This document shows, piece after piece, positions 3,696 through 46,677 of a stretch of DNA of 64,000 nt (position 1 is its first letter; the number at the start of each line of letters is the position of its first letter). The translations under genes were made by a program, and so were the position numbers. The stretch lies in assembly GCF_013315695.1 (NCBI RefSeq), contig NZ_CP054353.1. One strand, 5' to 3'. Under the pieces are notes generated by a model. The model saw nothing but the letters and a program-made list of their open reading frames with translations, was not told the DNA's origin and did no database searches. The stretch comes from Escherichia coli. Lineage in GTDB: Bacteria; Pseudomonadota; Gammaproteobacteria; Enterobacterales; Enterobacteriaceae.

Positions 3696-4091
<396 letters not shown>

Positions 4092-5750: not shown

Positions 5751-7064
<1,314 letters not shown>

Positions 7065-7135: not shown

Positions 7136-8788
<1,653 letters not shown>

Positions 8789-9792: not shown

Positions 9793-9863
9793 TAGAATGT
9801 CCTGAAAATTGCGGGTCTGTCAGGTGGAAACCTGTGACCAGAATAGAAGTGAGTTAGTAACAC

Positions 9864-10447: not shown

Positions 10448-10524
10448 AACCCTTTCCTCAAACCGCTATCATATGTAGATACAGTATATATCAATCTACA
10501 TTGTAGATACGAGCAAATTTCGGC

Positions 10525-12759
10525 CTAACTCCCGTGCAACCGACGTGCGTCGATAACATCCGGCACCTGGTTGAGTTTACCCAGCACGCGGCCCAGCACT
10601 TGCAGGTTGTAAATCTCAATGGTCATGTCGATGGTCGCCAGTTGCTGTTTGGTGTCGCTACGGCTGGCAACGCCAAGCACGTTCACTTTCTCATTGGCGA
10701 GAATGGTTGTGATATCACGTAACAACCCACTACGATCATTAGCCACCACGCGGACCACCAGCGAATATCCGGCGGAGTAGCTCTCGCCCCATACCGCATC
10801 AACAATACGTTCTGGCGCATGGGAGCGCAGTTCCGCTAGTTGTTCGCAATCGGCGCGGTGTACTGAAATACCGCGTCCCTGAGTAATGAAACCAACTATT
10901 TCATCACCAGGAATCGGCTGGCAGCAGCGCGCGATGTGGTGCATCAGGTTACCGACACCTTCAACCACCACACGACCGTTATCTTTACTGCGGTTTTGCG
11001 GCGTATAGCTTTTTTGCTGAAGTTGCTTCAGCGCGGCGGCATCCTGCTCTTCGGCACTCGGCTTATTAAATTGCGATTGCAGGAAGTTCACCATCTGATT
11101 GAGACGGATATCCCCGCCACCAATCGCCGCCAGCAACTCGTCGACATCATTGAAGTTGTAACGCGGCAGCAGATGTTTTTCTGCTTCTTTCAGGCTGATC
11201 CCCAGATGTTCCAGCTCGTCGTCAAGGATTTGCCGCCCAGCCAGAATGTTTTTGTCACGGTCCTGTTTACGGAACCAGGCGTGAATTTTCGAACGCCCAC
11301 GGCTGGTTGTGACGTAACCGAGGTTTGGGTTTAACCAGTCACGGCTGGGGTTCGGCTGTTTCTGGGTGATAATTTCAATCTGGTCGCCCATCTGCAGCTG
11401 GTAGGTGAACGGCACAATGCGCCCGCCAATTTTTGCCCCGATGCAGCGGTGTCCGACATCACTGTGGATGTGGTAAGCGAAGTCCAGCGGTGTTGATCCC
11501 GCAGGCAAATCAACGACATCACCTTTCGGCGTAAAGACGTACACCCGGTCGTCAAAGACCTGGCTACGTACTTCGTCGAGCATTTCGCCGGAATCAGCCA
11601 TCTCTTCCTGCCACGCAATCAGTTTACGCAGCCAGGCAATCCGGTCTTCATGTCCCGAACGTGCGCCGCCAGCTGCCGCGCCCTCTTTATATTTCCAGTG
11701 CGCAGCAACACCCAACTCTGCATCTTCATGCATCTGTTTAGTGCGGATTTGGATCTCTACGGTTTTGCCACCCGGCCCCAGAACCACGGTATGAATAGAC
11801 TGATAACCGTTTGGTTTCGGGTTAGCGACGTAATCGTCAAACTCATCCGGCAGGTGGCGATAGTGAGTGTGCACTATCCCCAGTGCGGCATAACAATCCT
11901 GTAAACGCTCGGCGACAATACGTACCGCACGCACATCAAACAGCTCATCGAAGGCGAGGTTCTTTTTCTGCATTTTGCGCCAGATGCTGTAGATATGTTT
12001 CGGTCGACCATACACTTCAGCTTTAACGCCTTCAGCTTTCATCTCAGCGCGCAGATGACCGACAAACTCTTCGATATAGTGTTCGCGGTCGAGACGGCGT
12101 TCATGCAGCAGTTTTGCGATGCGTTTGTATTCGGTCGGGTGGAGATAACGGAAGCAGTAATCTTCCAGCTCCCATTTCAGTTGTCCAATCCCAAGACGGT
12201 TCGCCAACGGCGCGTAGATATTGGTGCACTCTTTTGCCGCCAGTACGCGTTCATCTTCCGGCGCGTCTTTTACTTCGCGCAGATGAGCAATACGCTCTGC
12301 CAGTTTGATGACCACGCAGCGAAAATCATCGACCATCGCCAATAACATCCGGCGAACGTTATCGACCTGTTCGGAGGAAACAGAATCGGTATGCGTCGCT
12401 TTCAGCTGGCGGATCGCCGCCATATCACGCACGCCGTGAATAAGGTTAACGACCGACTTACCGACGCTCTCACGCAGCACATCTTCGCTGACTACGTTGG
12501 CATCGGCCAGAGGGAACAGCAGCGCCGCCCGCAGCGTGTCAATGTCCATACTTAATGTCGAGAGGATCTCCACCATCTCAACACCACGCCACAATAACAG
12601 ACTGGCATCCGGATGCCCCTGCGTCTGTTGCAGACAATACGCCCAGGTTTCGGCTAAGCACTCACACGACTTCTGGCTGGTAATACCCAGACTTGCGATC
12701 CATTTTTCCGGATCAAATTCACCAGCCTTATTGATATGTGCACTTCTTACCGCAACCAT
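10525..12759 (-). CDS. relA: GTP pyrophosphokinase, (p)ppGpp synthetase I
   Basis: 744-aa ORF with HD-like and synthetase domains and C-terminal ACT region; relA-mazEF-mazG order. Confidence 0.96.
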   Translation of the reverse strand: MVAVRSAHINKAGEFDPEKWIASLGITSQKSCECLAETWAYCLQQTQGHPDASLLLWRGVEMVEILSTLSMDIDTLRAALLFPLADANVVSEDVLRESVGKSVVNLIHGVRDMAAIRQLKATHTDSVSSEQVDNVRRMLLAMVDDFRCVVIKLAERIAHLREVKDAPEDERVLAAKECTNIYAPLANRLGIGQLKWELEDYCFRYLHPTEYKRIAKLLHERRLDREHYIEEFVGHLRAEMKAEGVKAEVYGRPKHIYSIWRKMQKKNLAFDELFDVRAVRIVAERLQDCYAALGIVHTHYRHLPDEFDDYVANPKPNGYQSIHTVVLGPGGKTVEIQIRTKQMHEDAELGVAAHWKYKEGAAAGGARSGHEDRIAWLRKLIAWQEEMADSGEMLDEVRSQVFDDRVYVFTPKGDVVDLPAGSTPLDFAYHIHSDVGHRCIGAKIGGRIVPFTYQLQMGDQIEIITQKQPNPSRDWLNPNLGYVTTSRGRSKIHAWFRKQDRDKNILAGRQILDDELEHLGISLKEAEKHLLPRYNFNDVDELLAAIGGGDIRLNQMVNFLQSQFNKPSAEEQDAAALKQLQQKSYTPQNRSKDNGRVVVEGVGNLMHHIARCCQPIPGDEIVGFITQGRGISVHRADCEQLAELRSHAPERIVDAVWGESYSAGYSLVVRVVANDRSGLLRDITTILANEKVNVLGVASRSDTKQQLATIDMTIEIYNLQVLGRVLGKLNQVPDVIDARRLHGS

Positions 12760-12806
12760 CGTCCTCTCCTTTAGGGACCAGACCTGCCGAAATCGGCAAA
12801 TCGTAA

Positions 12807-14108
12807 CTATTTAACGCGCGAGAAAAGTACCATCGATTCCAGATGTCCCGTGTGTGGGAACATATCCAGCATCGCCAGTCGCGCAATGGTATATCCTGCT
12901 TTTAATAACGCTTCGCTATCCCGAGCCAGCGTTGCAGGATTACAGGATACATAAACTATACGAATAGGTTCCAGTTTTATAATTTGCTGCATAACACCTG
13001 CGGCACCTGCTCGCGCCGGGTCCAGCAACACTTTATCGAAGCCGTTTTTCGCCCACGGCTGCTTTGTGACATCTTCTTCAAGATTTTCGTGATAAAACGT
13101 CACATTGTGTAAGCCATTAAGACGCGCATTCTGCTGGCCTTTTTCCACCAGCGCCGGAACACCTTCTACACCCACCACACTGGCAGCTTGTGTCGCCAAT
13201 GGCAGTGTAAAGTTGCCCATACCGCAGAACAGATCCAGTACGCGATCTTCAGGTTGTACATCCAGCCATTCCAACGCACGCGCTACCATTTTTTGGTTCA
13301 CACCCGCATTGACCTGAATAAAATCGCGCGGGCTAAAAGTTAAGCGCAACCCGTTTGAGTCATACCAGGGCATCTCACCAGAGACGGTTTCGAGTATCTC
13401 ACTATCGGGGGCGAGATACAGATCCAGTCCTTCAGAATGCGAAAAGCGTTCCAGTTTTTCGCGATCTGCCGAACTTAGCGGTGCGGTATGGCGCAAAATC
13501 ATCAGCGTGCCGCTGGTTGCCTGTACCAGTTCAACATGACCAAGATGGCGCATAGCTTGTAAGCTGCCCAGGCATGCCCTGACTTTGGGCAGCAATGCTT
13601 CAAGTTGGGGCACTAAAATGGGGCATTGTTTAACGTCGACAATGTCACTGGAGCCCGCTTTGCGAAACCCCATCTGAAGTTGCTGTGTTTTCGGTAAGTA
13701 GTTCAGACTTAAACGCGCGCGACGGCGATAGCCCCAGGGAACATCGGCGATCACTTCAGAGACTTCGTGTTTCATTAATCGGGCGAGTGCCGCACTTTTG
13801 CTTCGCTGCTGTAAATCCACACTGGCGTGTTGTTGCTGACAGCCGCCGCATACGCCAAAATGAGGGCAGCGTGGCGTTTCGCGTTCCGGGCTATCGCTTA
13901 ACCGGCGCACGACTTTAGCGCGGGCGTATTGTTTTTTATCTTCAGTAACAGTAACTTCCGCGTTTTCCTGTGGCAATAATCCAGGAATAAATAACGTTTT
14001 GCCGTTATGTCGCGCCACGCCCTGACCAAAAGAGTCGAGGTCATTGACTGAAACGGTTATGATCTGACGCGTCGTCGTGTGTCGTTTTGCAGAGTAGAAT
14101 TGCGCCAT
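12807..14108 (-). CDS. rlmD: 23S rRNA (uracil1939-C5)-methyltransferase
   Basis: 433-aa ORF with TRAM domain and Cys cluster ([11 protein letters not shown]) plus SAM-methyltransferase fold; divergent from barA. Confidence 0.9.
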
Positions 14109-14164
14109 TGGCGAGACTTTCTCAATTTAACAGTGTGACCTTAATTGTCCCATAACGGAACTCC

Positions 14165-16921
14165 ATGACCAACTACAGCCTGCGCGCACGCATGATGATT
14201 CTGATCCTGGCACCGACCGTCCTGATTGGTTTATTGCTGAGTATCTTTTTCGTCGTGCATCGCTATAACGACTTGCAGCGTCAACTGGAAGATGCCGGTG
14301 CCAGCATTATTGAGCCGCTTGCAGTTTCTACTGAATATGGCATGAGCCTGCAAAATCGCGAATCTATCGGTCAGTTAATAAGCGTACTGCATCGCCGCCA
14401 TTCCGATATTGTTCGCGCAATTTCGGTTTATGATGAAAATAACCGACTCTTTGTCACCTCCAATTTTCATCTTGATCCTTCATCAATGCAGCTCGGTAGC
14501 AACGTGCCGTTTCCTCGCCAGCTCACTGTCACACGTGACGGCGATATTATGATCCTCCGCACGCCGATTATTTCTGAGAGTTACTCCCCCGACGAATCGC
14601 CCAGTAGCGATGCCAAAAATAGTCAAAATATGTTGGGATATATTGCGCTTGAGCTGGATCTTAAATCGGTTCGCTTGCAGCAATATAAAGAGATCTTTAT
14701 TTCCAGCGTGATGATGCTGTTTTGTATCGGTATTGCGCTTATTTTTGGCTGGCGCTTAATGCGCGATGTAACCGGTCCGATTCGCAATATGGTGAATACC
14801 GTCGACCGCATCCGTCGCGGGCAACTCGACAGCCGGGTGGAAGGATTTATGCTCGGCGAGCTGGATATGCTGAAAAACGGTATCAACTCGATGGCAATGT
14901 CGCTGGCTGCTTATCACGAAGAGATGCAACACAATATCGACCAGGCGACGTCCGATCTGCGTGAAACGCTGGAGCAAATGGAGATTCAGAACGTTGAGTT
15001 GGATCTGGCGAAAAAGCGCGCCCAGGAAGCGGCGCGTATTAAATCCGAGTTTCTGGCAAATATGTCACACGAGCTGCGTACACCACTGAATGGTGTTATT
15101 GGCTTTACCCGCCTGACGCTGAAAACAGAATTAACACCAACGCAGCGCGATCACCTGAATACGATTGAACGTTCGGCAAATAATTTGCTGGCAATTATTA
15201 ATGATGTTCTCGACTTCTCGAAACTGGAAGCCGGTAAGCTGATTCTGGAAAGTATTCCATTCCCACTACGCAGCACGCTGGATGAAGTCGTTACCCTGCT
15301 GGCACATTCTTCTCACGATAAAGGGCTGGAACTGACGCTCAATATTAAAAGCGACGTGCCTGATAACGTGATCGGCGACCCACTACGATTACAGCAAATC
15401 ATCACTAACCTGGTGGGGAATGCAATTAAATTCACCGAGAATGGCAACATTGATATTCTGGTAGAAAAACGTGCGCTGAGTAATACCAAAGTGCAAATTG
15501 AAGTGCAGATTCGGGATACCGGCATTGGTATTCCTGAACGCGATCAATCGCGCTTATTCCAGGCCTTCAGACAGGCTGATGCCAGTATTTCCCGCCGTCA
15601 TGGTGGCACCGGGCTGGGGCTGGTGATTACACAAAAACTGGTTAATGAAATGGGCGGTGATATTTCGTTCCATAGCCAGCCGAATCGTGGTTCAACTTTC
15701 TGGTTCCACATTAATCTCGATCTGAACCCGAACATTATTATCGAAGGGCCATCCACCCAGTGCCTCGCCGGTAAGCGCCTGGCCTATGTCGAACCAAATT
15801 CCGCAGCAGCGCAATGCACGCTGGATATTTTAAGTGAAACGCCGCTGGAAGTGGTTTATAGCCCAACGTTCTCCGCGCTGCCTCCCGCGCATTACGACAT
15901 GATGTTATTAGGCATAGCGGTGACCTTCCGCGAGCCGCTAACAATGCAACATGAGCGATTAGCGAAAGCAGTATCGATGACCGATTTCCTGATGCTGGCA
16001 CTTCCTTGCCATGCACAAGTCAATGCTGAAAAACTTAAGCAAGATGGTATCGGCGCGTGTCTGCTGAAACCATTAACACCTACGCGCCTGTTGCCTGCCC
16101 TGACGGAATTTTGTCATCACAAACAAAACACGCTTTTGCCTGTAACCGATGAAAGTAAGCTGGCAATGACAGTCATGGCGGTTGATGACAACCCCGCTAA
16201 CCTGAAACTTATCGGCGCATTGCTGGAAGATATGGTGCAACATGTGGAACTTTGCGATAGCGGGCATCAGGCGGTTGAACGGGCGAAACAGATGCCGTTC
16301 GATTTGATCTTAATGGATATTCAAATGCCGGACATGGATGGCATTCGGGCCTGCGAACTCATCCACCAACTCCCGCATCAGCAACAAACGCCGGTTATCG
16401 CGGTAACGGCGCATGCAATGGCCGGGCAAAAAGAGAAGCTGCTTGGCGCAGGGATGAGCGATTATCTGGCGAAACCGATTGAAGAAGAGCGATTGCATAA
16501 TTTGTTGTTGCGCTACAAGCCTGGCAGCGGTATTTCCTCTCGCGTCGTGACGCCCGAAGTCAACGAAATTGTGGTGAACCCGAATGCGACCCTCGACTGG
16601 CAACTGGCACTACGCCAGGCAGCAGGAAAAACCGATTTAGCGCGCGATATGCTGCAAATGTTACTCGATTTCCTGCCTGAAGTTCGCAACAAAGTTGAGG
16701 AACAGCTGGTTGGAGAAAACCCGGAAGGCCTGGTTGATTTGATTCATAAACTGCATGGCAGTTGCGGCTATAGCGGTGTGCCGCGTATGAAGAATCTCTG
16801 CCAACTGATCGAACAACAGCTACGTAGCGGTACTAAAGAAGAAGATTTGGAGCCGGAGCTGCTGGAACTGTTAGACGAGATGGATAATGTAGCGCGCGAA
16901 GCCAGCAAAATTCTCGGGTAA
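14165..16921 (+). CDS. barA: hybrid sensor histidine kinase BarA (BarA/UvrY two-component system)
   Basis: 918-aa ORF with N-terminal transmembrane segments, HAMP, HisKA (SHELRTPLN), HATPase, receiver and Hpt domains. Confidence 0.95.
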
Positions 16922-16995
16922 CGGACGTCTTGTCGAGTAGCAATCGGCTTTTTATGAAGCTGGTTTCAGACTGGTGACAAAGTGCCTGTGTTTAT

Positions 16996-17029
16996 GCCGG
17001 ATGCGGCGTTAACGCCTTATCCTGCCTAC
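16996..17029. repeat. REP (repetitive extragenic palindromic) element
   Basis: gccggatgcggcgttaacgccttatcctgcctac, the canonical REP consensus, in the barA-gudD intergenic region. Confidence 0.7.
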
Positions 17030-17114
17030 AAAACCAATTAAATTCAATGAATTAAAAAGTATGTTGGCCTGATACGTAGCGCAACAGGCAATTTTGCGTT
17101 TGGCATCAGTCTCA

Positions 17115-17147
17115 AACCGGCTCCTGACAGAGCCGGTTTTTGTTTTC
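17115..17147. terminator. bidirectional rho-independent terminator between barA and gudD
   Basis: aaaccggctc...gagccggttt hairpin flanked by A-run upstream and T-run downstream. Confidence 0.7.
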
Positions 17148-17151
17148 AGTC

Positions 17152-18492
17152 TTAACGCACCATGCACGGGCGCTTGTTATCAAACGTCCAGCCAGGAATC
17201 AGGTACTGCATTCCCATCGCATCGTCACGCGCGCCAAGCCCGTGTTTCTGATACAGCTCGTGGGCTTTCATCACCTGATCCATATCGATTTCTACGCCCA
17301 ATCCTGGTTTTTGCGGCACCTGTACCAGCCCGCCTTTGATCTCAAACGGTTCTTTGGTCAGACGCTGATTGCCTTCCTGCCAGATCCAGTGCGTATCAAT
17401 AGCAGTAATTTTACCCGGTGCAGCAGCGGCTACATGGGTAAACATCGCCAGGGAAATATCGAAGTGGTTGTTAGAGTGTGAACCCCAGGTCAGGCCAAAT
17501 TCATGGCACATTTGCGCCACACGTACCGAACCTTGCATCGTCCAGAAATGCGGATCCGCCAGCGGGATATCAACGGATTGCAGGGAGAGCGTATGGCCCA
17601 TCTGCCGCCAGTCGGTGGCGATCATATTGGTTGCGGTCGGCAGGCCTGTCGCGCGACGGAACTCTGCCATCACTTCACGCCCGGAGAAACCTTGCTCCGC
17701 ACCACACGGATCTTCTGCATAAGCCAGCGAACCTTTCAGGTATGTACCAATTTTAATCGCTTCGTTCAGCGACCAGGCACCGTTAGGATCGAGGGTAATA
17801 CGCGCCTGTGGGAAGCGTTGCGCCAGTGCCACAATAGATTCTGCTTCTTCTTCCCCGGCCAGTACACCGCCCTTCAGTTTGAAATCGTTGAAGCCATATT
17901 TTTCATATGCCGCTTCCGCCAGGCGCACCACCGCATCCGGCGTCATCGCTTCTTCGTGACGCAGGCGATACCAGTCACATTGATCATCCGGCTGGCTTTG
18001 ATACGGCAGCGGTGTGGCTTTGCGATTACCGACGAAGAACAGATAACCGAGCATTTCGACTTCGCTACGCTGTTGACCATCGCCCAGCAGCGATGCCACG
18101 TTAACCCCCAGATGCTGCCCCAGCAGATCCAGCATTGCCGCTTCTATCCCGGTAACCACATGAATAGTGGTCCGCAGGTCAAATGTCTGCAAACCGCGCC
18201 CGCCGGCATCACGATCGGCAAATGTATTACGCACCAGCGTCAGAACGTTTTTGTATTCACCCAGCGTTTTACCCACCACCAGCGGAATCGCATCTTCCAG
18301 CGTTTTACGGATTTTCTCGCCGCCGGGAATTTCCCCTACCCCAGTGTGACCAGAATTATCTTTGATAATCACAATATTACGCGTGAAGAACGGTGCGTGT
18401 GCACCACTCAGATTCATCAGCATACTGTCATGGCCCGCCACCGGGATGACCTGCATTTCAGTAACAACAGGCGTCGAAAATTGAGAACTCAT
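17152..18492 (-). CDS. gudD: glucarate dehydratase
   Basis: Enolase-superfamily ORF; track ORF (454 aa) starts 8 codons early, probable true start at MSSQF...; paralogous to the adjacent gudX. Confidence 0.9.
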
Positions 18493-18512
18493 CTTTATGT
18501 CCTTTTTCAAAA

Positions 18513-19853
18513 TCAATGACGGCCGAAAACGGGACGTTTACGGTCAAAGGTCCAGCCGGGGATCAGGTACTGCATCGGGCCCGCGTCGTTACGCGCACCG
18601 CCAGGCAGACGTTTATAGGCCTCATGCGCCTTTTGTACCTGCTCCCAGTCCAGTTCCACGCCCAGACCGGGCGCATCAGGAACGGCAATTTTTCCATTTT
18701 TAATCTCCAGCGGATTTTTGGTCAGGCGACAATCGCCCTCCTGCCAAATCCAGTGGGTATCGATAGCGGTAGGATTACCCGGTGCCGCCGCGCCCACATG
18801 GGTAAACATCGCCAGAGAGATATCAAAGTGGTTATTGGAATGGCAGCCCCAGGTCAGCCCCCAGTCGTCGCAAAGCTGCGCTACGCGGACTGCACCGGAA
18901 AGCGTCCAGAAGTGCGGGTCGGCAAGTGGAATATCTACCGCATTGAGCATCACCGCATGGCCCATTTCGCGCCAGTTGGTGGCGATCATATTAGTCGCGA
19001 CGGGCAAGCCGGTCGCCCGCCGAAATTCCGCCATCACTTCACCTCCGGAGAAACCCTGTTCTGCGCCACACGGATCTTCGGCATAGGTGAGAACATCATT
19101 CAGCCCTTTGCACAGAGAAATAGCTTCATCAAGCAGCCATGCTCCGTTGGGATCAACGGTAATCCGCGCATCCGGGAAGCGTTTCTTCAATGCACGAACA
19201 GTGTCGATTTCTTGCTCGCCAGGTAACACTCCGCCCTTAAGTTTGAAATCTTTAAAGCCATAGCGATCCTGTGAAGCTTCCGCCAGACGCACAACGGCTT
19301 CGCTGTTCATCGCTTTCTGATGCCGCAATTGATACCACTCATGGTTGCCCGGCGTATTTTCCAGATAAGGAAGATCGGTTTTGGTCCGATCACCGATATA
19401 AAACAGATAACCGAGAACGGTAATAGCATCACGTTGCTTGCCTGGCCCTAACAGTTCGCAGACCGGAACATTCAGCGCCTTACCTAGCAGGTCAAGCAAG
19501 GCGGCTTCCAGCGCCGCCACGGCATTAACGCGCAATTCAAAAGTCCAGGCACCTTTGCCGAAGGTATCAAAATCGGCTGCCTGATTACCTTTATGCACCT
19601 GCTGAACCACTTTATTCAGGCGCGCAACTTCCTGGCCCAGCACCATCGGAATAGCCTCGACCAGTGTCTGATAAATCACCTCTCCGCCCGGCGCTTCACC
19701 AATGCCGGTATGCCCGGCGTTATCGGTGAGTACCACAATATTGCGGGTGAAATATGCGTTATGTGCACCACCAATATTAAGCAACATGCTATCGTGCCCG
19801 GCGACCGGAATGACTTTCATATCAGTAATAACAGGACTGGATTGTGTCGTCAT
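18513..19853 (-). CDS. gudX: glucarate dehydratase-related protein
   Basis: 446-aa ORF highly similar to the downstream gudD product (shared [20 protein letters not shown] motifs). Confidence 0.9.
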
Positions 19854-19854
19854 C

Positions 19855-21207
19855 TTATTGCCCCGCGACAGGTTTCAGCTCGATACGCTTGATATCGCCC
19901 ACCAGCACCAGGTAGCTCAGTACCGCGATTAAGGCATGAACACCAACATAAATCAGCGCCCCATTAAAGGAGCCAGTCGTGCCAACGATATAACCAATTG
20001 CGATTGGCGTGACGATGCCAGAAATGTTACCAAACATGTTGAACAGGCCACCGGAAAGACCGCTGATCTCTTTTGGCGCAGTATCAGCCATTACAGCCCA
20101 ACCCAGCGCCCCGATCCCCTTACCGAAGAAGGCCAGCGCCATAAAGCCGATGATCATCCACTCAACGTTGACGTAGTTGCAGAACACCATCACCATCGAC
20201 AGCAACATGCCCATTACGATCGGTGTTTTACGCGCAATGTTCAGCGATCCCGTGCGGCGCATCAGCCAGTCGGAAATAATCCCACCCAGCACACCGCCGA
20301 TAAAACCGCAAACCGCCGGAACGGAAGCCACAAAGCCCGCTTTCAGAATCGACATCCCACGCGCCTGCACCAGATAAACCGGAAACCAGGTAATGAAAAA
20401 GTAAGTCAGGGCGTTGATACAGTACTGACCGATATAAACGCCGATCATCATCCGTGACCCGAGCAGCTGTTTGATCTGCCCCCACTTCACGCTGAACGGC
20501 ACTTTAACTTTGGTGTTTTGCTGATCCATATTGATCAGCGCGCCACCCGCGGCGATGTACTCCAGCTCTTTCTGATTTACACCCGGATGTTGATTTGGCT
20601 CGTGGATGACTTTCAACCAGATAAAGCTGATGACAATGCCCAGACCGCCCATAAAGAAAAAGACGTGTGACCAGCCCACTTCATGCGTCAGCCAGCCCAT
20701 AATCGGCGCGAAGATCACCGTTGCGAAGTATTGAGCGGAGTTAAAAATCGACACCGCCGTTCCCCTTTCCTGCGCCGGAAACCAGGCCGCAACAATGCGA
20801 CTGTTGCCGGGGAAAGAGGGCGCTTCAGCAAGCCCGACCAGGAAGCGCAGCGTAAACAGGGCAACGATAATGCCGAATCCACTAAAGATATCGACGAAGC
20901 CTTGCAGCAAGGTAAACATCGACCAGATAAAGATCGACCAGAAGTAGACGCGTTTTGAACCAAAACGATCCAGCAACCAACCACCAGGGATCTGCCCGAT
21001 AACATAAGCCCATGAGAAAGCAGAGAACACATAGCCCATTCCCACAGGATCAAGGCCGATATCTTTGGCCATTTCCGAACCGGCGATAGAGAGCGTAGCG
21101 CGGTCGCCGTAGTTGAAGGATGTGACGATAAACAACATCACCACTATCCAGTAACGAGCATTCGTGCGTTTTTCCACACTGCTCGCAGCCTGACTTAAAG
21201 AACTCAT
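19855..21207 (-). CDS. gudP: MFS glucarate/galactarate transporter
   Basis: 450-aa polytopic membrane protein upstream of gudX/gudD, stop 1 nt from gudX start. Confidence 0.9.
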
Positions 21208-21641
21208 TGTTGCACTCCTGAAAATTCGCGTTAGCCACGCTCACTCTGGACTGCGACATCGCCAGGAAATCAGAGGTGACGTAGGGTGTTTTTTGCCGTT
21301 TTTATAGGTCGTTCGCCGAATGCGGCGCGTGTTTATATCTGGCAATAGCAGTATAAAAAGCGCGCCATAGCGGCTCACCGTGCAACAACACAACATTAAT
21401 GCGTTCAATGAGGCCCGATTTTGGCATTAGCCCTGGACGGTGGAATCCACTTCACGGAAATGAAAACAAGAACAAGAAAGGAAGGGTTAAAACGAAGAAA
21501 TAAAGAAGAGTATGAAATGGATCGCTTGACTCCAGGCAAACGCCAGTAAAAATCCGCACTATGAAGCAGTTTTTACTGGCATTTGCCTGAAAAGATTCGA
21601 TTCAGCACTGCTAAAACGGCATTTACCGCTTGCTGAACATA

Positions 21642-22091
21642 TCAGGACAACAGCGTGCCCCAATGTTCGACCCACGGATTTGATTCCGTTTCCGGTTCCG
21701 GGTTCTCACTGGCGTCAATCAACAGCATTTCTCCCACTCGCTGAGCGCTCTGTTCCTGCAACAAGGCATCGAACTGTTTGCCGCCATTGCAGAAATTCAC
21801 ATAACTACTGTCGCCGAGCGCAATCACGCCATAACGCAGATTCGGCTGGAAGCCCAGGGTATCTTTAATTCCCTGAAAGAGCGGCACAATGCAATCAGGA
21901 AGGTCACCCTGCCCGGTCGTGGACGTAACCACCAGAACATACTTATCCTGATAGGGCAGCCAGTCGCTTAATTCAGGATCTTCAAATACCGTTGCTTTGT
22001 GGCCCTGCGCGGTCAGAATTGCTTCCGCTTCTTCCGCCACTAACAGCGAATTTCCGTACATAGTGCCGACAAAAATACCAATTTCCGCCAT
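21642..22091 (-). CDS. yqcA: flavodoxin-like protein YqcA
   Basis: 149-aa [29 protein letters not shown]... with flavodoxin fold signature. Confidence 0.85.
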
Positions 22092-22108
22092 ACCGTTTTC
22101 TCCCTGGA

Positions 22109-22891
22109 TTAGGAACTTATCTCTCCATCCTGACCCGATGGCGCACTGAACTCAACCCTTTCATTTTCAGGAAGCAGACCCCGCCAGCCAAATTGTGATA
22201 ACGCCTGCATCCAGGTGTCGTCCAGGCCCGCGTGAATAGTCAGCGGCTCGCCAGTAAAAGGATGCGTCAATGACAACTGACTGGCATGCAGCATTAACCG
22301 CTGAAGGCCAAAATGTTCAGCACCGCTGCGATTCTGGCGTAAATCACCATGTTTGCTGTCGCCAATAATCGGGTGGCGCAAATGGGCAAGATGGCGACGG
22401 AGCTGGTGCTTACGTCCGGTTTTCGGCTCCAGTTCCACCAGGCCGTAGCGCGTGGTCGGGTAACGTCCGGTCGCTACCGGCATTTCTACGGTCGCCAGAC
22501 CGCGATAATGCGTCACTGCTGGCTGCGGGCCTTTATCTTCGCGGGCAAATTTATCAGCGATTTTGTCCAGTTCTTCCACCAGTGGATAATCCAGCACCGC
22601 TTCTTCCATCAACCAGCCGCGCACAATCGCATGATAACGTTTCTGGATTTGGTGCTGTTCAAACTGTTGTGCCAGCAGCCGTCCGGCCTCGCTGGATAAT
22701 CCCATCAACAACACACCAGAAGTGGGTCGGTCCAGACGATGAGCAGTAAACACATGCTGGCCTATCTGGTCACGCACGGTTTGCATGACCACTACTTTCT
22801 CGTCGCGATCCAGCCAGCTGCGGTGAACCAGCCAGCCGGAGGGTTTATTTACCGCAACCAGCCATTCATCCTGATAGAGTATTTCCAGCAT
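22109..22891 (-). CDS. truC: tRNA pseudouridine65 synthase
   Basis: 260-aa ORF with RluA-family pseudouridine synthase motif ([12 protein letters not shown]). Confidence 0.88.
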
Positions 22892-23220
22892 TAGCTCGCA
22901 TCATCCGCAAAAAGAGCATCCAGTTTTTCCAGCTCAGCCAGAATAAGCGCGCGTTGCGGGTGGTCCGTCGCCAGCGCCATTTCATAATAGGGAGCAACGG
23001 CAAAAGCGCCCGGTAACGGCTGGTTGTTTTCTAACAAATCGTGCATTCGCGGGATCAGCACCCACTGCAACCACTCCAGTGGTTCCATGGTGTCCATAAA
23101 GAACGGTTGGGTACTATTAAATTGATGCGGCTGGGGTTCATCGTTTCGCCAGTGCTGATGTTCACGCAGTAACGCTTCAAGCGCCTGCAACTGGAAACGA
23201 ACGCGGTCATGAGTGGTCAT
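22891..23220 (-). CDS. yqcC: DUF446 family protein YqcC
   Basis: 109-aa ORF, overlaps truC start by 1 nt; position between truC and csrB as in E. coli. Confidence 0.8.
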   Translation of the reverse strand: MTTHDRVRFQLQALEALLREHQHWRNDEPQPHQFNSTQPFFMDTMEPLEWLQWVLIPRMHDLLENNQPLPGAFAVAPYYEMALATDHPQRALILAELEKLDALFADDAS

Positions 23221-23262
23221 AAAGCAACCTCAATAAGAAAAACTGCCGCGAAGGATAGCAGG

Positions 23263-23622
23263 AATAAAAAAAGGGAGCACTGTATTCACAGTGCTCCCGG
23301 TTCGTTTCGCAGCATTCCAGCTACTTTTGTTGCTCCCTGCTCATCCTTGACAACTTTTCCTCTGGCCTTGCGGCCAATCGTTCATCCTGAACTATTGCTT
23401 CCTGCTCACACCACCCCGATGTGATACTTCATCCTGAAGTGTCCCTGGCCTTCCTGACCCACCGAATCATCCTGACCGGTTCTCATTCTCCATCCTGGAG
23501 GTGTCCTTTAACGCGTCCTGCGTCATCCTCTTCGCTTCATCCAGAAGCCTTTCCCTGAAACACCATCCTGGTGTGTCCTTCAGAAGTGTCATCATCCTGA
23601 TGTTCACTTCGTTGTCTGACTC
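23263..23622 (-). ncRNA. csrB: CsrB small RNA (CsrA-sequestering)
   Basis: Minus strand begins GAGTCAGACAACGAAGTGAACATCAGGATGATG... and ends in GGAGCACTGTGAATACAGTGCTCCC + T-run; many repeated CAGGATG/AGGA motifs (plus strand shows repeated catcctg). Confidence 0.93.
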
Positions 23623-23841
23623 CCTGTCGACGAAGATAGAATCGTCTTTTTCGCGAAGTCTTACAAGGCGCTTACAGACAATGCCTTAAGGAAAATTTCA
23701 TATGAAAGTTAAGAATTGACAAGCAATATATTGATTTTAAATGAAAATAACGATTCTTATCTTTTTAAGTATTCGCTTATTTCCTGGCGATCTCCTACAG
23801 AGTCTGTAAGAGATCTCTCACAACAAGATGGGGTATTTGGA

Positions 23842-24387
23842 TTACAGAAGAGGCTTAAGTTGATTAAGGAATTCCGCAAGATTTGAGGCTAAATGCGTCC
23901 GTTTGCGTGTTCCCAGCGTCTCTTTGCACACTTCACCGGAGAGATTACACACCGAGATGACCTCTAACTCTTCTTCCAGCGTCGCGATAAATAGCGTGGG
24001 CGGCAGTTTTAGCCTTTTCTGAGTCACCAGATGACCAATCAGATTTTCCTGCACCCGACGGAAGTCGTCTTCACTCCAGGTTTGCAGCAATGTCAGTTTG
24101 ATATCGCCAAACTGCGCGTGCATATCCCCGGCAAACTGAGTCGTATAAAAGGTATGAATTGTGGGTTGTATCACAATATCAAAAGCGCGTTCAACCGCGT
24201 TTACATTTTGTTCCCCGGTAAACGGCTGGGGTTGCCAGTATACGGCGTCTTCGGTGGTTGAAATAATGCACGGTGAAGGAACGCCGTACAGTTCCTCACT
24301 CAACGGCCAGCTTTTATGCTCTTCATGCCACGCATCGCAGTAGCGTGCAGTAAAATCTTTCAGGGCTTGTGCGGTCAAATCGTCCAC
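23842..24387 (-). CDS. syd: SecY-interacting protein Syd
   Basis: 181-aa [26 protein letters not shown]...; recognised as Syd. Confidence 0.88.
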
Positions 24388-38523: not shown

Positions 38524-39255
38524 ATGAAAGCGGCACGCCAGCAAGCGATAGTCGACCTGCTGCTGAACCATACCAGCCTGACCACGGAAGCTCTCTCTGA
38601 ACAGCTAAAGGTCAGTAAAGAAACCATTCGTCGCGATCTCAATGAATTACAGACGCAGGGTAAAATTCTGCGCAATCATGGACGCGCTAAATATATCCAC
38701 CGTCAAAATCAAGACAGTGGCGATCCCTTTCACATCCGGTTGAAAAGCCATTATGCGCATAAAGCAGATATCGCGCGCGAGGCGCTCGCGTGGATTGAAG
38801 AAGGGATGGTAATAGCATTAGACGCCAGTTCAACCTGCTGGTATCTGGCACGCCAGTTGCCTGACATCAACATCCAGGTCTTCACCAATAGCCATCCGAT
38901 TTGCCATGAACTCGGTAAACGTGAACGCATTCAACTGATCAGTTCCGGCGGCACACTTGAGCGCAAATATGGTTGTTACGTCAATCCCTCGCTGATTTCC
39001 CAGCTTAAATCGCTGGAAATCGATCTGTTTATTTTTTCTTGTGAAGGGATCGATAGCAGCGGCGCACTGTGGGACTCCAATGCCATCAACGCTGATTACA
39101 AATCAATGCTATTAAAACGCGCCGCACAATCGTTGTTATTGATTGATAAAAGTAAATTTAATCGTTCAGGGGAAGCCCGCATCGGGCATCTGGATGAGGT
39201 CACGCACATTATTTCTGATGAGCGCCAGGTTGCAACTTCTTTGGTAACAGCCTGA
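38524..39255 (+). CDS. fucR: DeoR-family activator of the fucose regulon
   Basis: DeoR-type HTH; track ORF starts at 38515, probable start MKAARQQAIVDLL at 38524. Confidence 0.9.
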   Translation: MKAARQQAIVDLLLNHTSLTTEALSEQLKVSKETIRRDLNELQTQGKILRNHGRAKYIHRQNQDSGDPFHIRLKSHYAHKADIAREALAWIEEGMVIALDASSTCWYLARQLPDINIQVFTNSHPICHELGKRERIQLISSGGTLERKYGCYVNPSLISQLKSLEIDLFIFSCEGIDSSGALWDSNAINADYKSMLLKRAAQSLLLIDKSKFNRSGEARIGHLDEVTHIISDERQVATSLVTA

Positions 39256-39298
39256 CGGAAAGGGTAGCAGGCCGGAGACGACGCCCCGGCCTTGCCTG

Positions 39299-40399
39299 TT
39301 ATCGCTCGTCGCGACGACCACCCACCGCAGCCCAGATACGGCGGACGTGCACCGTCACTTCTTCGCGATCGTGATACAACTGCCGCGCCTGGATCTGAGC
39401 ATTTATGCCATGTTCATCAAGCTGTGCCTGAATATACGCCAGATTGTGTGACACTTCTTCGTAGCGTTTTTTCATCGGCAGTTTGAGGTTGAAAATGCTT
39501 TCACGGCACCAGCCATTAACCAGCCACTGCGCCATCAATGCCGCAACTTTCGCCGGTTTTTCAACCATATCGCATACCATCCAGGAGATATTGCTGCGTG
39601 TCGGACGGAATTTGAAACCGTCTTCCCGCAGCCACGTCACCTGTCCGGTATCCATCAGACTTTGCGCCATCGGGCCGTTGTCGACGGAATAAACCCACAT
39701 GTTGCGCTTCACCAGTTGGTAGGTCCAGCCGCCTGGGCAAGCGCCTAAATCCACCGCCCACATCCCGTTCGCCAGGCGTTCATCCCACTCATCCGCAGGA
39801 ATAAACACATGAAATGCCTCTTCCAGTTTGAGCGTGGAACGACTCGGCGCATCTGCCGGAAATTTCAGGCGCGGAATGCCCATATAGAACGGCGAATTAT
39901 TGTTGCTGTATGAGTAACCAGTATAGCAACAGCCTGGTGCAATAAAGAATACATGCACAACCGGACGCTTCGGCGTTTCATAGTTCGCCAGCACACCCGC
40001 ATCACGCAAGGCAGCGCGTAGCGGCACGGTGAATTTACGGCAGAATTTCAGCAACTCTTTGCTTTCGTTGGTATCGGCAACTTCAACACGCAGTTCACCG
40101 CCCTTCTCTACTACGCCCTGTAACATGCCGACAATGGGGGTAATACGATCTTCTGGCGGCAAATGCTGCAGGAGTTCCCCCACTACAAACCACTGGCGGG
40201 CAAAAATTAATGAATTGAACGGCAGCTCACGGATTAACTTATCGCCATCATCAGGTTGATAACATTCATAAATGACATAACCCGCATTCTCTTTCACGCG
40301 GGCAAAACCGAAAATTTCCCGCTGGCCGGCTTTATCGGTAATTTCTGCGGCGCACTCTTTTTCAAAGCCCGGACGGCACAGCAATACAACCTTATTCAT
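39299..40399 (-). CDS. rlmM: 23S rRNA 2'-O-ribose C2498 methyltransferase
   Basis: 366-aa ORF (YgdE) with SAM-MTase fold; overlaps ygdD by 8 nt. Confidence 0.88.
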
Positions 40400-40787
40400 G
40401 ACTTACGCCCTTGCGCTTTAAACGGATAGCACCAACTAACATTAACGCCCAGCCCGCGAGGAAGCTCACGCCGCCAACCGGTGTGACAAATGCCCACAAA
40501 CGCAGATGGGACAGCGCCAGGCAATAAAGGCTGCCGCTGAACAGCACCGTGCCTAACGCGAGGAAAACGCTACTCCAGTAAAACCAGATACTGATGCGAC
40601 GCTGCATTGCCACCGCCAGACCTAAGATCGCCAGCGTGTGGAACGCCTGGTATTCGAGACCGGTCTGGATCCAGCCCATCTCAACGGCCCCCATGGTTTT
40701 ACTTAACACATGCGCGCCAAAAGCGCCCAGAGCCACAAAAATGAAGCCGCTAATGGCGGCGAAAATCAGCATAAAACGGCTGGTCAT
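40392..40787 (-). CDS. ygdD: DUF423 inner-membrane protein
   Basis: 131-aa hydrophobic ORF between gcvA and rlmM. Confidence 0.85.
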
Positions 40788-40805
40788 GGTCGTACCCTAC
40801 GTAAA

Positions 40806-41723
40806 TTATTGTTCATAACGAAAGCGGAATTTTTCTTGTTCAGCAGCGGCTTTCGCCAGGATCCATTGGCGAAAGGCGGCTATTTTACCCAGTTCTGCCT
40901 GGCTGTCATGACAAACCAGATAAAAAGCGTTTTTACTGACCAGAACATCATTAAACGGGCAAACAAGACGTCCGGCCTCGATTTCAGATTGCGCCATCAC
41001 GTTATTTGCCAGCGCCACTCCCTGCCCGTGGATAGCCGCTTGCAGCACCATGGCGCTATGGCTAAAAATTGGCCCTTGCTGAACGTTGATATGATTTAAC
41101 CCCAACTGTCGGGTATATGTCTGCCAGTCACGGCGTGACGCATCATGTAATAACGTATGTTTAGCCAGATCTTCCGGGGTCTTCAAGGGTTTTTCGCCAG
41201 TCAGCAGTAGCGGCGAGCACACCGGCAATAAATATTCGGCGTACAGTTTTTCCACCCGTAGCCCCGGCCAGTTGCCCCGACCATAAAATATCGCCACATC
41301 AACATCATCCGCCAGCTTATCTTCCTGACGATCAACCGCCTGGATTCGAACGTCAATTCCCGGATAAGCTGAATTAAAGCTGGAAAGTCGCGGAACCAAC
41401 CAATGAATGGCGAAACTGGGGAGTAAACTGACCGTCAACGCCCCCTTGGCGCTACGGGCCTGGAGTTTACGCGTCGCTTCGGTTAATTGCGAAAATATCT
41501 CTTTGATATCGAGGAAATAGCTTTGCCCTTCCTCGGTCAGCAGGAGTGAACGATTACGGCGGCGGAACAGTTTTAGCCCCAAAAAATCCTCAAGAGACTT
41601 GATTTGATGACTTACTGCGGCCTGGGTCACAAAAAGCTCTTCTGCTGCGCGAGTGAAACTTAAATGGCGTGCTGCGGCATCAAAAACTCGTAAGGCATTT
41701 AGCGGTGGTAATCGTTTAGACAT
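40806..41723 (-). CDS. gcvA: LysR-family regulator of the glycine cleavage system
   Basis: 305-aa ORF with N-terminal LysR HTH (FDAAARHLSFTRAAEELFVTQAAVSHQIK); divergent from gcvB. Confidence 0.95.
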   Translation of the reverse strand: MSKRLPPLNALRVFDAAARHLSFTRAAEELFVTQAAVSHQIKSLEDFLGLKLFRRRNRSLLLTEEGQSYFLDIKEIFSQLTEATRKLQARSAKGALTVSLLPSFAIHWLVPRLSSFNSAYPGIDVRIQAVDRQEDKLADDVDVAIFYGRGNWPGLRVEKLYAEYLLPVCSPLLLTGEKPLKTPEDLAKHTLLHDASRRDWQTYTRQLGLNHINVQQGPIFSHSAMVLQAAIHGQGVALANNVMAQSEIEAGRLVCPFNDVLVSKNAFYLVCHDSQAELGKIAAFRQWILAKAAAEQEKFRFRYEQ

Positions 41724-41851
41724 GGCTTTTAAACTTTGATGTTAAATGAATTTAACAATTAGATCACACTGTGTAACCTATTAGTTTTTTTAATCTGAGC
41801 CATTATAAATTGTCCGTTGAGCTTCTACCAGCAAATACCTATAGTGGCGGC

Positions 41852-42057
41852 ACTTCCTGAGCCGGAACGAAAAGTTTTATCGGAATGCGTGTTCTGGTGA
41901 ACTTTTGGCTTACGGTTGTGATGTTGTGTTGTTGTGTTTGCAATTGGTCTGCGATTCAGACCATGGTAGCAAAGCTACCTTTTTTCACTTCCTGTACATT
42001 TACCCTGTCTGTCCATAGTGATTAATGTAGCACCGCCTAATTGCGGTGCTTTTTTTT
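41852..42057 (+). ncRNA. gcvB: GcvB small RNA (Hfq-dependent)
   Basis: Starts ACTTCCTGAGCCGGAACG a few bp after a TATAGT -10; contains GU-rich block GTTGTGATGTTGTGTTGTTGTGTTTG; ends in GCACCGCCTAATTGCGGTGC + T8 terminator. Confidence 0.92.
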
Positions 42058-42073
42058 ACCTTGCGATCGCGAA

Positions 42074-42301
42074 TTACTGATCCAGTTCGACCATCTCTTT
42101 CACGTCAGTACGGTTGATCTGCTGTTTGTTGCCATTAGCGTCTTTATACGAAATCATACCGGTATCGTTATCAGTCTGTGGTTTGCCGTCAGAGACGATG
42201 GTACGTCCGTCATTGGTGTGCATCACATAGTTCGAACCGGAACAGGCGCTCAGGGCAAAAGTCAGCATACAGGCAGAAATAATTGCGGCAGTCTTTTTCA
42301 T
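42074..42301 (-). CDS. ygdI: small lipoprotein YgdI (DUF903)
   Basis: 75-aa ORF with lipoprotein signal and lipobox (LSAC|SGS); convergent with gcvB. Confidence 0.85.
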
Positions 42302-42492
42302 CATCTTCTCCTTAAAGCGATTAATAAATCTTAATAGTATTGATTAACAGGCTAAAATTAACGCCTAACACTATTCAGCATATGTTACTGACGCAGCTTC
42401 GCCAGGATATCCAGATAATTCTGATGGTTAGCACTCTCCTTGTATCAAAGTGAATTTTGCGTCACGATCGGTGCATCAAGCCGAGGAGTACC

Positions 42493-43698
42493 ATGAACGT
42501 TTTTAATCCCGCGCAGTTTCGCGCCCAGTTTCCCGCGCTACAGGATGCGGGCGTCTATCTCGACAGCGCCGCGACCGCGCTTAAACCTGAAGCCGTGGTT
42601 GAAGCCACCCGACAGTTTTATAGCCTGAGCGCCGGAAACGTCCATCGCAGCCAGTTTGCCGAAGCCCAACGCCTGACCGCGCGTTACGAAGCTGCGCGGG
42701 AAAAAGTGGCACAATTACTGAATGCATCGGATGACAAAAATATCGTCTGGACGCGCGGCACCACTGAATCCATCAACATGGTGGCGCAATGCTATGCCCG
42801 TCCGCGTCTGCAACCGGGCGATGAAATTATTGTCAGTGTGGCAGAACACCACGCCAACCTCGTCCCCTGGCTGATGGTCGCCCAACAAACGGGGGCCAAA
42901 GTGGTGAAATTGCCGCTTAATGCGCAGCGACTGCCGGATGTCGATTTGTTGCCAGAACTGATTACTCCCCGTAGTCGGATTCTGGCGTTGGGCCAGATGT
43001 CGAACGTCACTGGCGGTTGCCCGGATCTGGCGCGAGCGATTACCTTTGCTCATTCAGCCGGGATGGTGGTGATGGTTGATGGTGCTCAGGGGGCGGTGCA
43101 TTTCCCCGCAGATGTTCAGCAACTGGATATCGATTTCTATGCTTTCTCTGGTCACAAACTGTATGGCCCGACGGGTATCGGCGTGCTGTATGGCAAATCA
43201 GAACTGCTGGAAGCGATGTCACCCTGGCTGGGTGGCGGCAAAATGATTCACGAAGTGAGTTTTGACGGCTTCACGACTCAATCTGCGCCGTGGAAACTGG
43301 AAGCCGGAACGCCAAATGTCGCTGGTGCTATAGGATTAAGCGCGGCGCTGGAATGGCTGGCAGATTACGATATCAACCAGGCCGAAAGCTGGAGCCGTAG
43401 CTTAGCAACGCTTGCAGAAGAAGCGCTGGCAAAACGTCCTGGCTTCCGCTCATTTCGCTGCCAGGATTCCAGCCTGCTGGCCTTTGATTTTGCTGGAGTT
43501 CATCACAGCGATATGGTGACGCTGCTGGCGGAGTACGGTATTGCCCTGCGGGCCGGGCAGCATTGCGCTCAGCCGCTACTGGCAGAATTAGGCGTAACCG
43601 GCACACTGCGCGCCTCTTTTGCGCCATATAATACAAAGAGTGATGTGGATGCGCTGGTGAATGCCGTTGACCGCGCGCTGGAATTATTGGTGGATTAA
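42493..43698 (+). CDS. csdA: cysteine desulfurase / sulfinate desulfinase
   Basis: Class V aminotransferase fold; track ORF starts at 42457, probable true start [16 protein letters not shown] at 42493 (401 aa). Confidence 0.92.
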
Positions 43699-44141
43699 TG
43701 ACGAACCCGCAATTCGCCGGACATCCGTTCGGCACAACCGTAACCGCAGAAACGTTACGCAATACCTTCGCACCGTTGACGCAATGGGAAGATAAATATC
43801 GCCAGTTGATCATGCTGGGGAAACAGCTTCCGGCTTTGCCAGACGAGTTAAAAGCGCAGGCTAAAGAGATTGCCGGATGCGAAAACCGCGTCTGGCTGGG
43901 ATATACCGTGGCTGAAAACGGTAAAATGCACTTCTTTGGCGACAGCGAAGGGCGCATTGTGCGCGGCCTGCTGGCAGTGTTGTTGACTGCCGTTGAGGGG
44001 AAAACCGCCGCCGAATTGCAGGCACAGTCGCCGCTGGCATTGTTTGATGAGCTGGGATTGCGTGCGCAGCTTAGCGCCTCACGCAGCCAGGGGTTGAATG
44101 CGTTAAGCGAGGCGATTATCGCTGTGGCGAAGCAGGTTTAA
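43698..44141 (+). CDS. csdE: sulfur acceptor protein CsdE (SufE-like)
   Basis: 147-aa SufE-family ORF, start overlapping the csdA stop. Confidence 0.9.
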
Positions 44142-44191
44142 GCACAGAACCAGGTCGGATAAGACGTTCGCGTCGCATCCGACCTGATTGT

Positions 44192-44998
44192 TTACCCCTG
44201 ACGCGCCGCTTTCGCCATCATCTTCTTCAGCGCATGAGAAACCGCAACAAAACCAAAGGTGGCGGTCACCATCGTCGCGGCACCAAATCCAGATGCACAA
44301 TCCATCCGCTTTGGCCCTTCCGCCGTAGCTTTCATTGCACAGACCGAGCCATCTGACTGCGGGTACACCAGCGCTTCGGTAGAGAACACGCAATCCACGC
44401 CGAGCTTACCTTTGCTGTTTTTCACTACGCCAAAATCGCTTTTCAGGCGCTCGCGCAACTTCGCCGCCAGCGGGTCCTGAATCGTTTTCGCCAGATCGGT
44501 AACCTGAATCTGCGTCGGGTCAATCTGCCCACCCGCGCCACCAGTCGTGACCAGCGGGATTTTATTGCGCCGACAATAAGCAATCAGCGCCGCTTTGGGC
44601 CGTACGCTATCAATGGCATCAATCACGTACGAATAACCCACGCTCATATACTGCGCTACGTTATCCGGCGTCACGAAGTCATCCACTACCGTTACACGGC
44701 ACTCCGGGTTAATCTGGCGAATACGCTCCGCCATTACTTCCGCTTTTGCCAGCCCAACGTTATCGCGCAGGGCGTGAATTTGCCGATTGGTATTGGTGAC
44801 GCACACATCATCCATATCGATAAGCGTGATTGCGCCAATCCCCGTGCGCGCCAGCGCTTCCGCCGCCCAGGAACCGACACCACCGATACCAACCACACAA
44901 ATATGCGCGTCAGCAAACAGTTGCAATGCTTTTTCACCATACAGACGCGCTGTGCCACCAAAACGCTGACGCCATGCATCACTAATTACCACAGACAT
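44192..44998 (-). CDS. tcdA: tRNA threonylcarbamoyladenosine dehydratase (ThiF/MoeB-like E1)
   Basis: 268-aa ORF with Rossmann motif VVGIGGVGSW; convergent with csdAE. Confidence 0.9.
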   Translation of the reverse strand: MSVVISDAWRQRFGGTARLYGEKALQLFADAHICVVGIGGVGSWAAEALARTGIGAITLIDMDDVCVTNTNRQIHALRDNVGLAKAEVMAERIRQINPECRVTVVDDFVTPDNVAQYMSVGYSYVIDAIDSVRPKAALIAYCRRNKIPLVTTGGAGGQIDPTQIQVTDLAKTIQDPLAAKLRERLKSDFGVVKNSKGKLGVDCVFSTEALVYPQSDGSVCAMKATAEGPKRMDCASGFGAATMVTATFGFVAVSHALKKMMAKAARQG

Positions 44999-45074
44999 AG
45001 CACCTCAGAATTAAAAAGGGTGAGGTTACCCCTCACCCTGTCATATCCGTAAAAACGGCATACAGAATATCACA

Positions 45075-46380: not shown

Positions 46381-46457
<77 letters not shown>

Positions 46458-46490
46458 ATTAAAATTTGATGAAGTAAAGCAGTACGGTGA

Positions 46491-46567
<77 letters not shown>

Positions 46568-46600
46568 ATCAAAATTTAATGAAGTAAAGTAGTACGGTGA

Positions 46601-46677
<77 letters not shown>

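Follow-up and report, generated by a model that had tools for sequence, protein, structure and literature searches.

GcvB is a small RNA that has been under study since 2000, and GcvA binds the gcvA/gcvB control region. The closest described counterpart of the locus analysed here is gcvB of Escherichia coli K-12 (b4443; Rfam family RF00022). Both loci share the RNA sequence, a divergent gcvA, a convergent ygdI and the same promoter and terminator; there is no difference in the RNA, and the gcvA-ygdI spacer differs from that of K-12 at two positions only, 41728 and 41771, both upstream of the RNA. For the identical K-12 sequence, Hfq binding, expression and repression of amino-acid transport mRNAs have been documented (PMC9299463), and the roles of R1, R2 and R3, the control by GcvA/GcvR, the dependence on Hfq and the decay triggered by SroC were described by Miyakoshi et al. 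2021 (PMC9299463). By pairing through R1, R2 and R3, the RNA would repress many amino-acid transporter and metabolism mRNAs.

Two further described systems resemble the 3′ end of the gene. Bidirectional, collision-type terminators between convergent genes were reportedly found by Ju et al. in 2019 using SEnd-seq. Bidirectional terminators of convergent pairs are also the subject of a preprint by Wang et al. 2022 (bioRxiv 10.1101/2022.10.23.513370), and the present locus resembles the terminators of both studies in having a single hairpin between convergent transcription units, with 3′ ends that overlap on both strands. In the second system, Rho-dependent transcripts have precise ends just past stable stem-loops that lack a U-tract, the stems shielding the RNA from PNPase and RNase II (Dar and Sorek 2018, PMC6061677). 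On the ygdI strand, our locus shares with this class (PMC6061677) a stable stem without a U-tract, a precise 3′ end a few nucleotides past it and a sequence richer in C than in G further downstream.

Here, we describe the spacer between gcvA and ygdI in a 64,000-nucleotide stretch of E. coli DNA (the window). The best overall explanation of this region, to which we assign a probability of roughly 85%, is that it carries gcvB and that the gcvB terminator hairpin is shared as the 3′ boundary of ygdI.

Identity and context of the gene

The spacer is flanked by two genes on the minus strand and divides into a control region, the RNA and a final spacer of 16 bp:

40806..41723, minus strand: gcvA, LysR-family regulator (305-aa ORF; Pfam HTH_1 and LysR_substrate; annotated as gcvA in K-12 and O157:H7)
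41724..41851, no strand assigned: shared gcvA/gcvB control region (promoter scan and conserved block 41780..41823)
42074..42301, minus strand: ygdI, DUF903 lipoprotein, convergent with gcvB (75 aa; Pfam DUF903, 83.9 bits; annotated in K-12 and O157:H7)

The original prediction had read this spacer as gcvB from its letters alone and had named the lack of a covariance-model hit as the result that would speak against it. In an Rfam 15 scan of 39000..45000, GcvB (RF00022) scored 199 bits at 41852..42057 on the plus strand, the gathering score being 42 (E 1.1e-47). The match is complete, with positions 1-204 of the 204 in the covariance model covered, and it recurs in a scan of the whole window at gathering thresholds. 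The RNA is 206 nt long and identical at 206/206 positions to the annotated gcvB of MG1655 (b4443, NC_000913.3 2942696..2942901); together with the synteny to gcvA in Enterobacterales, these matches establish the identity of the gene. The span that had been assigned to gcvB, 41724..42073, has to be narrowed: it is the entire gcvA-ygdI intergenic region, and the RNA itself occupies 41852..42057. Judged by its sequence, this segment is gcvB, an Hfq-dependent sRNA identical to the K-12 copy, thus an already known, textbook sRNA in its usual place.

The order of neighbours (rlmM, ygdD, gcvA, gcvB, ygdI, csdA, csdE, tcdA) is that of K-12. Of 5426 complete E. coli genomes, 5425 carry the 350-bp spacer, 5382 of them with at least 99% identity; it is 100% identical to that of O157:H7 and many other strains, and the source strain is not K-12. 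The curated K-12 record has gcvB, whereas neither the best 10 RefSeq matches nor the O157:H7 record carry any annotation over the spacer, which is probably why ORF tracks place spurious ORFs here. With the spacer unannotated in most RefSeq E. coli records, as judged from the ten best matches, ORF callers may set spurious small ORFs there and a view restricted to annotation misses GcvB.

Four further Rfam matches were rejected since they score below their gathering thresholds: Hrs13 (28 bits vs 52), which covers the terminator only, Twister-sister (24 bits vs 34), CRISPR-DR34 (23 bits vs 35) and naRNA4 (30.3 bits vs 59.5). The latter corresponds to a REP-like palindromic element between csdE and tcdA (44153..44233, plus strand).

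At the 5′ end of ygdI an adjacent pair of ATG codons is seen (42299..42304, minus strand). The ORF list begins with MMKK at the first (76 aa, start 42304); K-12 and RefSeq use the second (75 aa, start 42301).

Control region

As had been predicted, gcvB is divergent from gcvA (40806..41723, minus strand), and this arrangement is conserved in Enterobacterales. The promoter scan revealed a sigma-70-type gcvB promoter, TTGAGC-17-TATAGT, at 41817..41845, which ends 6 nt ahead of the RNA start. The elements in this region are:

41817..41822, plus strand: gcvB −35 element, TTGAGC (promoter scan)
41840..41845, plus strand: gcvB −10 element, TATAGT (promoter scan)
41807..41802, minus strand: perfect TATAAT, putative gcvA −10 element

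In 92 unique gcvA-gcvB spacers taken from other Enterobacterales, all columns of block 41780..41823 and of the −10 element reach at least 95% conservation, and the part of the spacer proximal to gcvA shows none. The block contains the dyad-like ATTAGTTTTTTTAAT and is a putative GcvA-binding site, as it coincides with the GcvA footprint (−76 to −29) reportedly found by Urbanowski et al. 2000. The gcvB promoter would lie back-to-back with the gcvA promoter inside the conserved control region.

Anatomy of the RNA

The RNA as a whole has a predicted folding energy of −62.1 kcal/mol (z −3.6). Its internal elements and its end are the following:

41914..41943, plus strand: R1 seed, G/U-rich GGTTGTGATGTTGTGTTGTTGTGTTTGCAA, the main target-pairing block (core invariant in 96 species; role from PMC9299463)
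41946..41962, plus strand: stem-loop SL2 (fold)
41965..41985, plus strand: internal hairpin GGTAGC-AAA-GCTACC followed by T6 (SL3, internal terminator-like; terminator scan)
41986..42001, plus strand: R2, conserved block CACTTCCTGTACATTT (nearly invariant in 96 species; seed region according to PMC9299463)
42003..42014, plus strand: R3 seed in SL4, CCCTGTCTGTCC, also the SroC sponge site (invariant in 96 species)
42029..42057, plus strand: Rho-independent terminator of GcvB with an 8-bp stem, a 6-nt loop and U8 (terminator scan)

The GU-rich block and the terminal hairpin with T8, from which gcvB had initially been recognised, are both present in the sequence, the former at 41914..41943. R1 lies between SL1 and SL2 and forms no or weak pairs in the computed fold. 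The SL3 hairpin folds with −8.1 kcal/mol, and its tail scores 4.44; a short GcvB form of about 130 nt reportedly ends at this internal site (Urbanowski 2000). For R3, mutations of G156, G160 and C162 and the pairing with SroC have been described (PMC9299463).

Several open reading frames overlap the RNA in the program-made ORF list:

41885..42025, plus strand: ORF of 46 aa
41905..42018, plus strand: ORF of 37 aa
41839..41943, minus strand: ORF of 34 aa
42041..42334, plus strand: ORF of 97 aa that starts within the terminator and is antisense to ygdI

The appearance of 41885..42025 and 41905..42018 in this list could be taken to indicate a small protein, made instead of or besides the non-coding RNA. 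Neither length is conserved: of 96 orthologous sequences, 59 retain a start codon for the 46-aa ORF and 21 its entire length, and the length of the 37-aa ORF is preserved in 21 and shortened to 5 aa in 32, whereas R1, R2, R3 and the terminator are invariant. Conservation tracks the RNA structure and the seed regions and not codons, so both plus-strand ORFs are spurious, as had been assumed, and a protein product is extremely unlikely.

Conservation across Enterobacterales

A pattern scan for the R1 motif in one genome per species returned 120 loci, of which about 9 (Oscillospiraceae, Bacteroidota and Prevotella) were chance matches without gcvA and were excluded. gcvA is divergent upstream in nearly all Enterobacterales loci that have enough flank. 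ygdI is convergent downstream in 77 species, comprising Enterobacteriaceae, Erwinia, Hafnia, Yersinia, Rahnella and most Serratia; among the loci from the scan it is not downstream of gcvB in Morganellaceae or Edwardsiella.

In 96 unique GcvB sequences, the R1 core, R3 and the six core pairs of the terminator, GCACCG/CGGTGC, are invariant, and R2 is nearly so. The terminator stem is identical in 96/96 species with zero compensatory change, and the loop is free to vary. Species without ygdI downstream show the same invariance of the stem, so it is GcvB, and not ygdI, that constrains it. The constraint on the stem appears, at the level of sequence, to exceed what termination alone would need. 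In a MAFFT alignment of the 96 sequences, compensatory changes were seen in 2 of 26 pairs; the stems are either invariant or, in the variable tip of SL1, ill-aligned. Covariation is thus nearly silent on the structure, and we relied on the Rfam model instead.

The distance between the T-run and the ygdI stop codon is only 8-43 nt in 65 of the 77 species. Transcripts of ygdI must therefore enter the palindrome, and there is no room for a separate ygdI terminator. In the species with a longer gap (63-280 nt), a separate canonical ygdI terminator would have suggested that the E. coli hairpin stands in for one; a simple scan found none in 11 of 12.

Mapped 3′ ends at the terminator hairpin

The terminal hairpin, GCACCGC-CTAATT-GCGGTGC, occupies 42030..42049 (42029..42050 with the closing A-U pair) and is followed on the plus strand by exactly eight T (42050..42057). 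The hairpin had been placed 16 bp from the ygdI stop, which is the TAA at 42074..42076 (minus strand); this holds for the end of the T-run (42058..42073 lie in between) and not for the stem, whose end is 24 bp away. The palindrome gives a stable, G+C-rich hairpin on both strands, with −14.3 kcal/mol (z −4.6) on the plus strand and, more stable, −16.2 kcal/mol on the minus strand. The tails differ: U8 on the plus strand has a score of 5.28 (99.99th percentile), whereas on the minus strand there is no U-tract after the stem and UACAUUAAUCAC follows instead, with a score of 1.30 (83rd percentile). These are U-tail scores of the d'Aubenton-Carafa type, with percentiles relative to all 15-mers of the window. 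In line with this, the terminator scan returned sites on the plus strand only and none on the minus strand at the hairpin.

Published Term-seq data from K-12 (Adams et al. 2021, PMC7815308, Supplementary file 1) can be carried over to the window through the identical sequence (offset 2,900,844) and place ends at the hairpin on both strands:

42050 (2942894), plus strand: GcvB 3′ end at the first U, LB OD 0.4, score 134,815
42026 (2942870), minus strand: ygdI "primary" 3′ end, LB OD 0.4, score 36,630
42025 (2942869), minus strand: ygdI "primary" 3′ end, LB OD 2.0, score 1,164,820
42026 (2942870), minus strand: ygdI "primary" 3′ end, M63, score 441,780
42026..42073, minus strand: ygdI 3′ UTR, made up of a 16-nt spacer, A8 and the same palindrome as the hairpin, with the end GCGGUGCUACA (K-12 Term-seq and minus-strand fold)

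The ygdI mRNA thus ends 4-5 nt beyond the stem in all three growth conditions, and the 3′ ends of ygdI and GcvB overlap in antisense by 25-32 nt over the hairpin. Because the palindrome also forms the hairpin of the ygdI 3′ UTR and the mRNA ends just past it, one DNA element delimits both convergent RNAs. The original prediction had stated that the hairpin likely terminates both transcripts; this is borne out for the position of the 3′ ends on the two strands and not for the mechanism, as the minus strand has no U-tract. We conclude that one hairpin marks both 3′ ends, which is experimentally supported for the identical sequence, and that a strict "shared terminator" is only a candidate reading. 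The identity of gcvB, its promoter and control region, its canonical terminator on its own strand and a hairpin delimiting both convergent RNAs are, taken together, a description that we hold with great confidence. A literature search for gcvB with ygdI and for ygdI with terminator found no paper discussing the shared hairpin.

The same Term-seq data contain 3′ ends internal to GcvB and inside R1, at 41919 (2942763, M63) and 41924 (2942768, LB OD 2.0), and in these two conditions the full-length GcvB 3′ end is absent from the listing. The R1-internal ends are consistent with cleavage and decay of GcvB when cells are not growing exponentially in rich medium.

On the plus strand, a strong Rho termination region was reported at 42290 (K-12 2943134), antisense to ygdI (Rho score 10.25, p 2e-71; PMC7815308, Supplementary file 2), with 1860 reads upstream and 44 downstream in untreated cells; under bicyclomycin, the respective counts were 1464 and 355. 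Plus-strand transcription that passes the GcvB terminator, or starts just after it, is thus apparently stopped by Rho before csdA is reached.

The end of the ygdI mRNA

How transcription ends on the ygdI strand is a separate question. Lacking a U-tract after the stem, the hairpin is probably not a self-sufficient terminator of ygdI; a protective stem, or a pause stem, after termination further downstream is more likely. The route that we favour, at somewhat less than even odds, is termination downstream followed by exonucleolytic trimming. RNA polymerase coming from ygdI would read through into antisense gcvB and would be halted further on, where Rho could plausibly load on the antisense of R1, which is rich in C/A and poor in G; 3′-to-5′ exonucleases would then trim the transcript back as far as the hairpin, which would shield the ygdI mRNA. 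In the antisense of R1 (41947..41908 on the minus strand), C minus G amounts to +11 in 40 nt, which is the 99.3rd percentile of the window; this tract lies about 65-110 nt downstream of the hairpin on the minus strand, and its composition is rut-like.

Several observations speak against trimming. The Rho termination regions listed by Adams et al. (PMC7815308) include none on the minus strand at the site; the authors caution that such regions may be underestimated, and transcription of gcvA downstream would mask readthrough on the ygdI strand. On the minus strand, the first ~60 nt past the hairpin are rich in G and not rut-like. Finally, A8 precedes the stem on the ygdI strand, and an A-tract 5′ of the stem was tied to intrinsic rather than Rho-dependent ends (Dar and Sorek, PMC6061677); at this locus, however, A8 is nothing more than U8 of GcvB read on the other strand. 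In the comparison with the protective stem-loops of Rho-dependent transcripts (PMC6061677), the ygdI stem therefore differs by the preceding A-tract, atypical of the class, and by a C-rich tract that starts ~65 nt downstream and not at once; the Rho dependence of ygdI is putative.

A steady-state 3′ end cannot tell termination from processing, and the hairpin could also be a true bidirectional intrinsic terminator in which the stem alone, perhaps with pausing by NusA/NusG, frees the polymerase on the ygdI strand without Rho. Such a mechanism would fit the sharp ygdI end that all three conditions show 4-5 nt past the stem, the high stability of the minus-strand stem (−16.2 kcal/mol), the spacing kept tight in 65/77 species and the blank around the site for minus-strand Rho regions in Supplementary file 2 of Adams et al. 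We nevertheless regard it as rather unlikely, for UACAUUAAUCAC scores only 1.30 compared with 5.28 for the plus-strand tail, and the consensus scan is blank on the minus strand. In canonical intrinsic termination, the RNA is released 7-9 nt into the U-tract, whereas ygdI ends 4-5 nt into mixed sequence. Neither can the conservation of the stem be claimed for this mechanism: it is as invariant in species without ygdI downstream and owes ygdI nothing.

A collision-type bidirectional terminator has to be considered as well. Here the hairpin would pause the converging gcvB and ygdI polymerases, and head-on and trailing collisions would release them. The convergent pair with 3′ ends overlapping at a hairpin, the one strand unlike an intrinsic terminator and the lack of a reported Rho signal are features expected of the class described in bioRxiv 10.1101/2022.10.23.513370. 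In the gcvB direction, however, the locus differs from the terminators in both studies (Ju et al. 2019; Wang et al. 2022) by having a textbook intrinsic terminator with U8, and the expression pattern of gcvB and ygdI argues against a dependence on collisions. The ygdI end is strongest where full-length GcvB was undetected (1,164,820 in LB OD 2.0 and 441,780 in M63, against 36,630 in LB OD 0.4), with the reservation that Term-seq scores are perhaps not comparable between conditions; this agrees with the low level of GcvB in cells that are not growing exponentially in rich medium (PMC9299463). Few gcvB polymerases are then expected to oppose those from ygdI, so the prominence of the ygdI end under just these conditions weakens the collision route, and we consider it improbable. 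Downstream termination with trimming back to the hairpin thus stays our preferred route to the ygdI 3′ end, a small share of the probability being given to none of these three routes.

Possible regulation by the overlap

The tight convergent overlap could itself be regulatory, strong transcription of ygdI or its 3′ UTR lowering GcvB by transcriptional interference or by cis-antisense pairing. The last 25-32 nt of GcvB, its Hfq-binding terminator module, have a perfect complement in the ygdI 3′ UTR, and the 8-43 nt spacing is kept in 65 of 77 species. The Term-seq signals look reciprocal, with the full-length GcvB end listed only in LB OD 0.4 and a ygdI end that is 12-30 times stronger in stationary phase and in minimal medium, if scores are comparable between conditions, which is perhaps not the case. 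We consider such a regulation very doubtful; if true, the ygdI overlap would add a layer of GcvB shut-off beside the SroC sponge.

With a copy identical to the K-12 gene, the locus has little import beyond correct annotation. A GcvB hairpin that doubles as the ygdI 3′ end without a U-tract is a clean, conserved natural case for one-sided "bidirectional" hairpins, and it should be kept in mind that engineering of gcvB, be it a deletion or a terminator swap, also alters the ygdI 3′ UTR.

Other features of the window

Far from gcvB, a break in synteny was observed at an IS4 copy (window ~4298..5700). Positions 2600..5200 (pheA, pheL, raiA and the start of the IS4 transposase) correspond to 1,332,126..1,334,727 of MSB1_4I on the plus strand with 100% identity, and positions 5200..24000 (the rest of IS4, pyrG, relA, barA, the gud genes and on towards csrB) to 1,127,235..1,146,035 on the minus strand. 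The two segments are ~186 kb apart in MSB1_4I and in opposite orientation, a second close reference agrees, and in K-12 pheA and csrB are likewise ~190 kb apart. Compared with the nearest references, the source genome seems to carry an inversion bounded by IS4, or else an assembly join.

Two further RNAs and a tRNA cluster were seen in the window: the Phe leader (RF01859; pheL attenuator of pheA) at 3468..3593 on the minus strand with 132 bits, annotated as such in the matching reference; the CsrB sRNA (RF00018) at 23263..23622 on the minus strand with 383 bits, at full length; and three identical tandem tRNA-Met (CAT) genes at 46381..46677 on the plus strand with a period of 110 bp.
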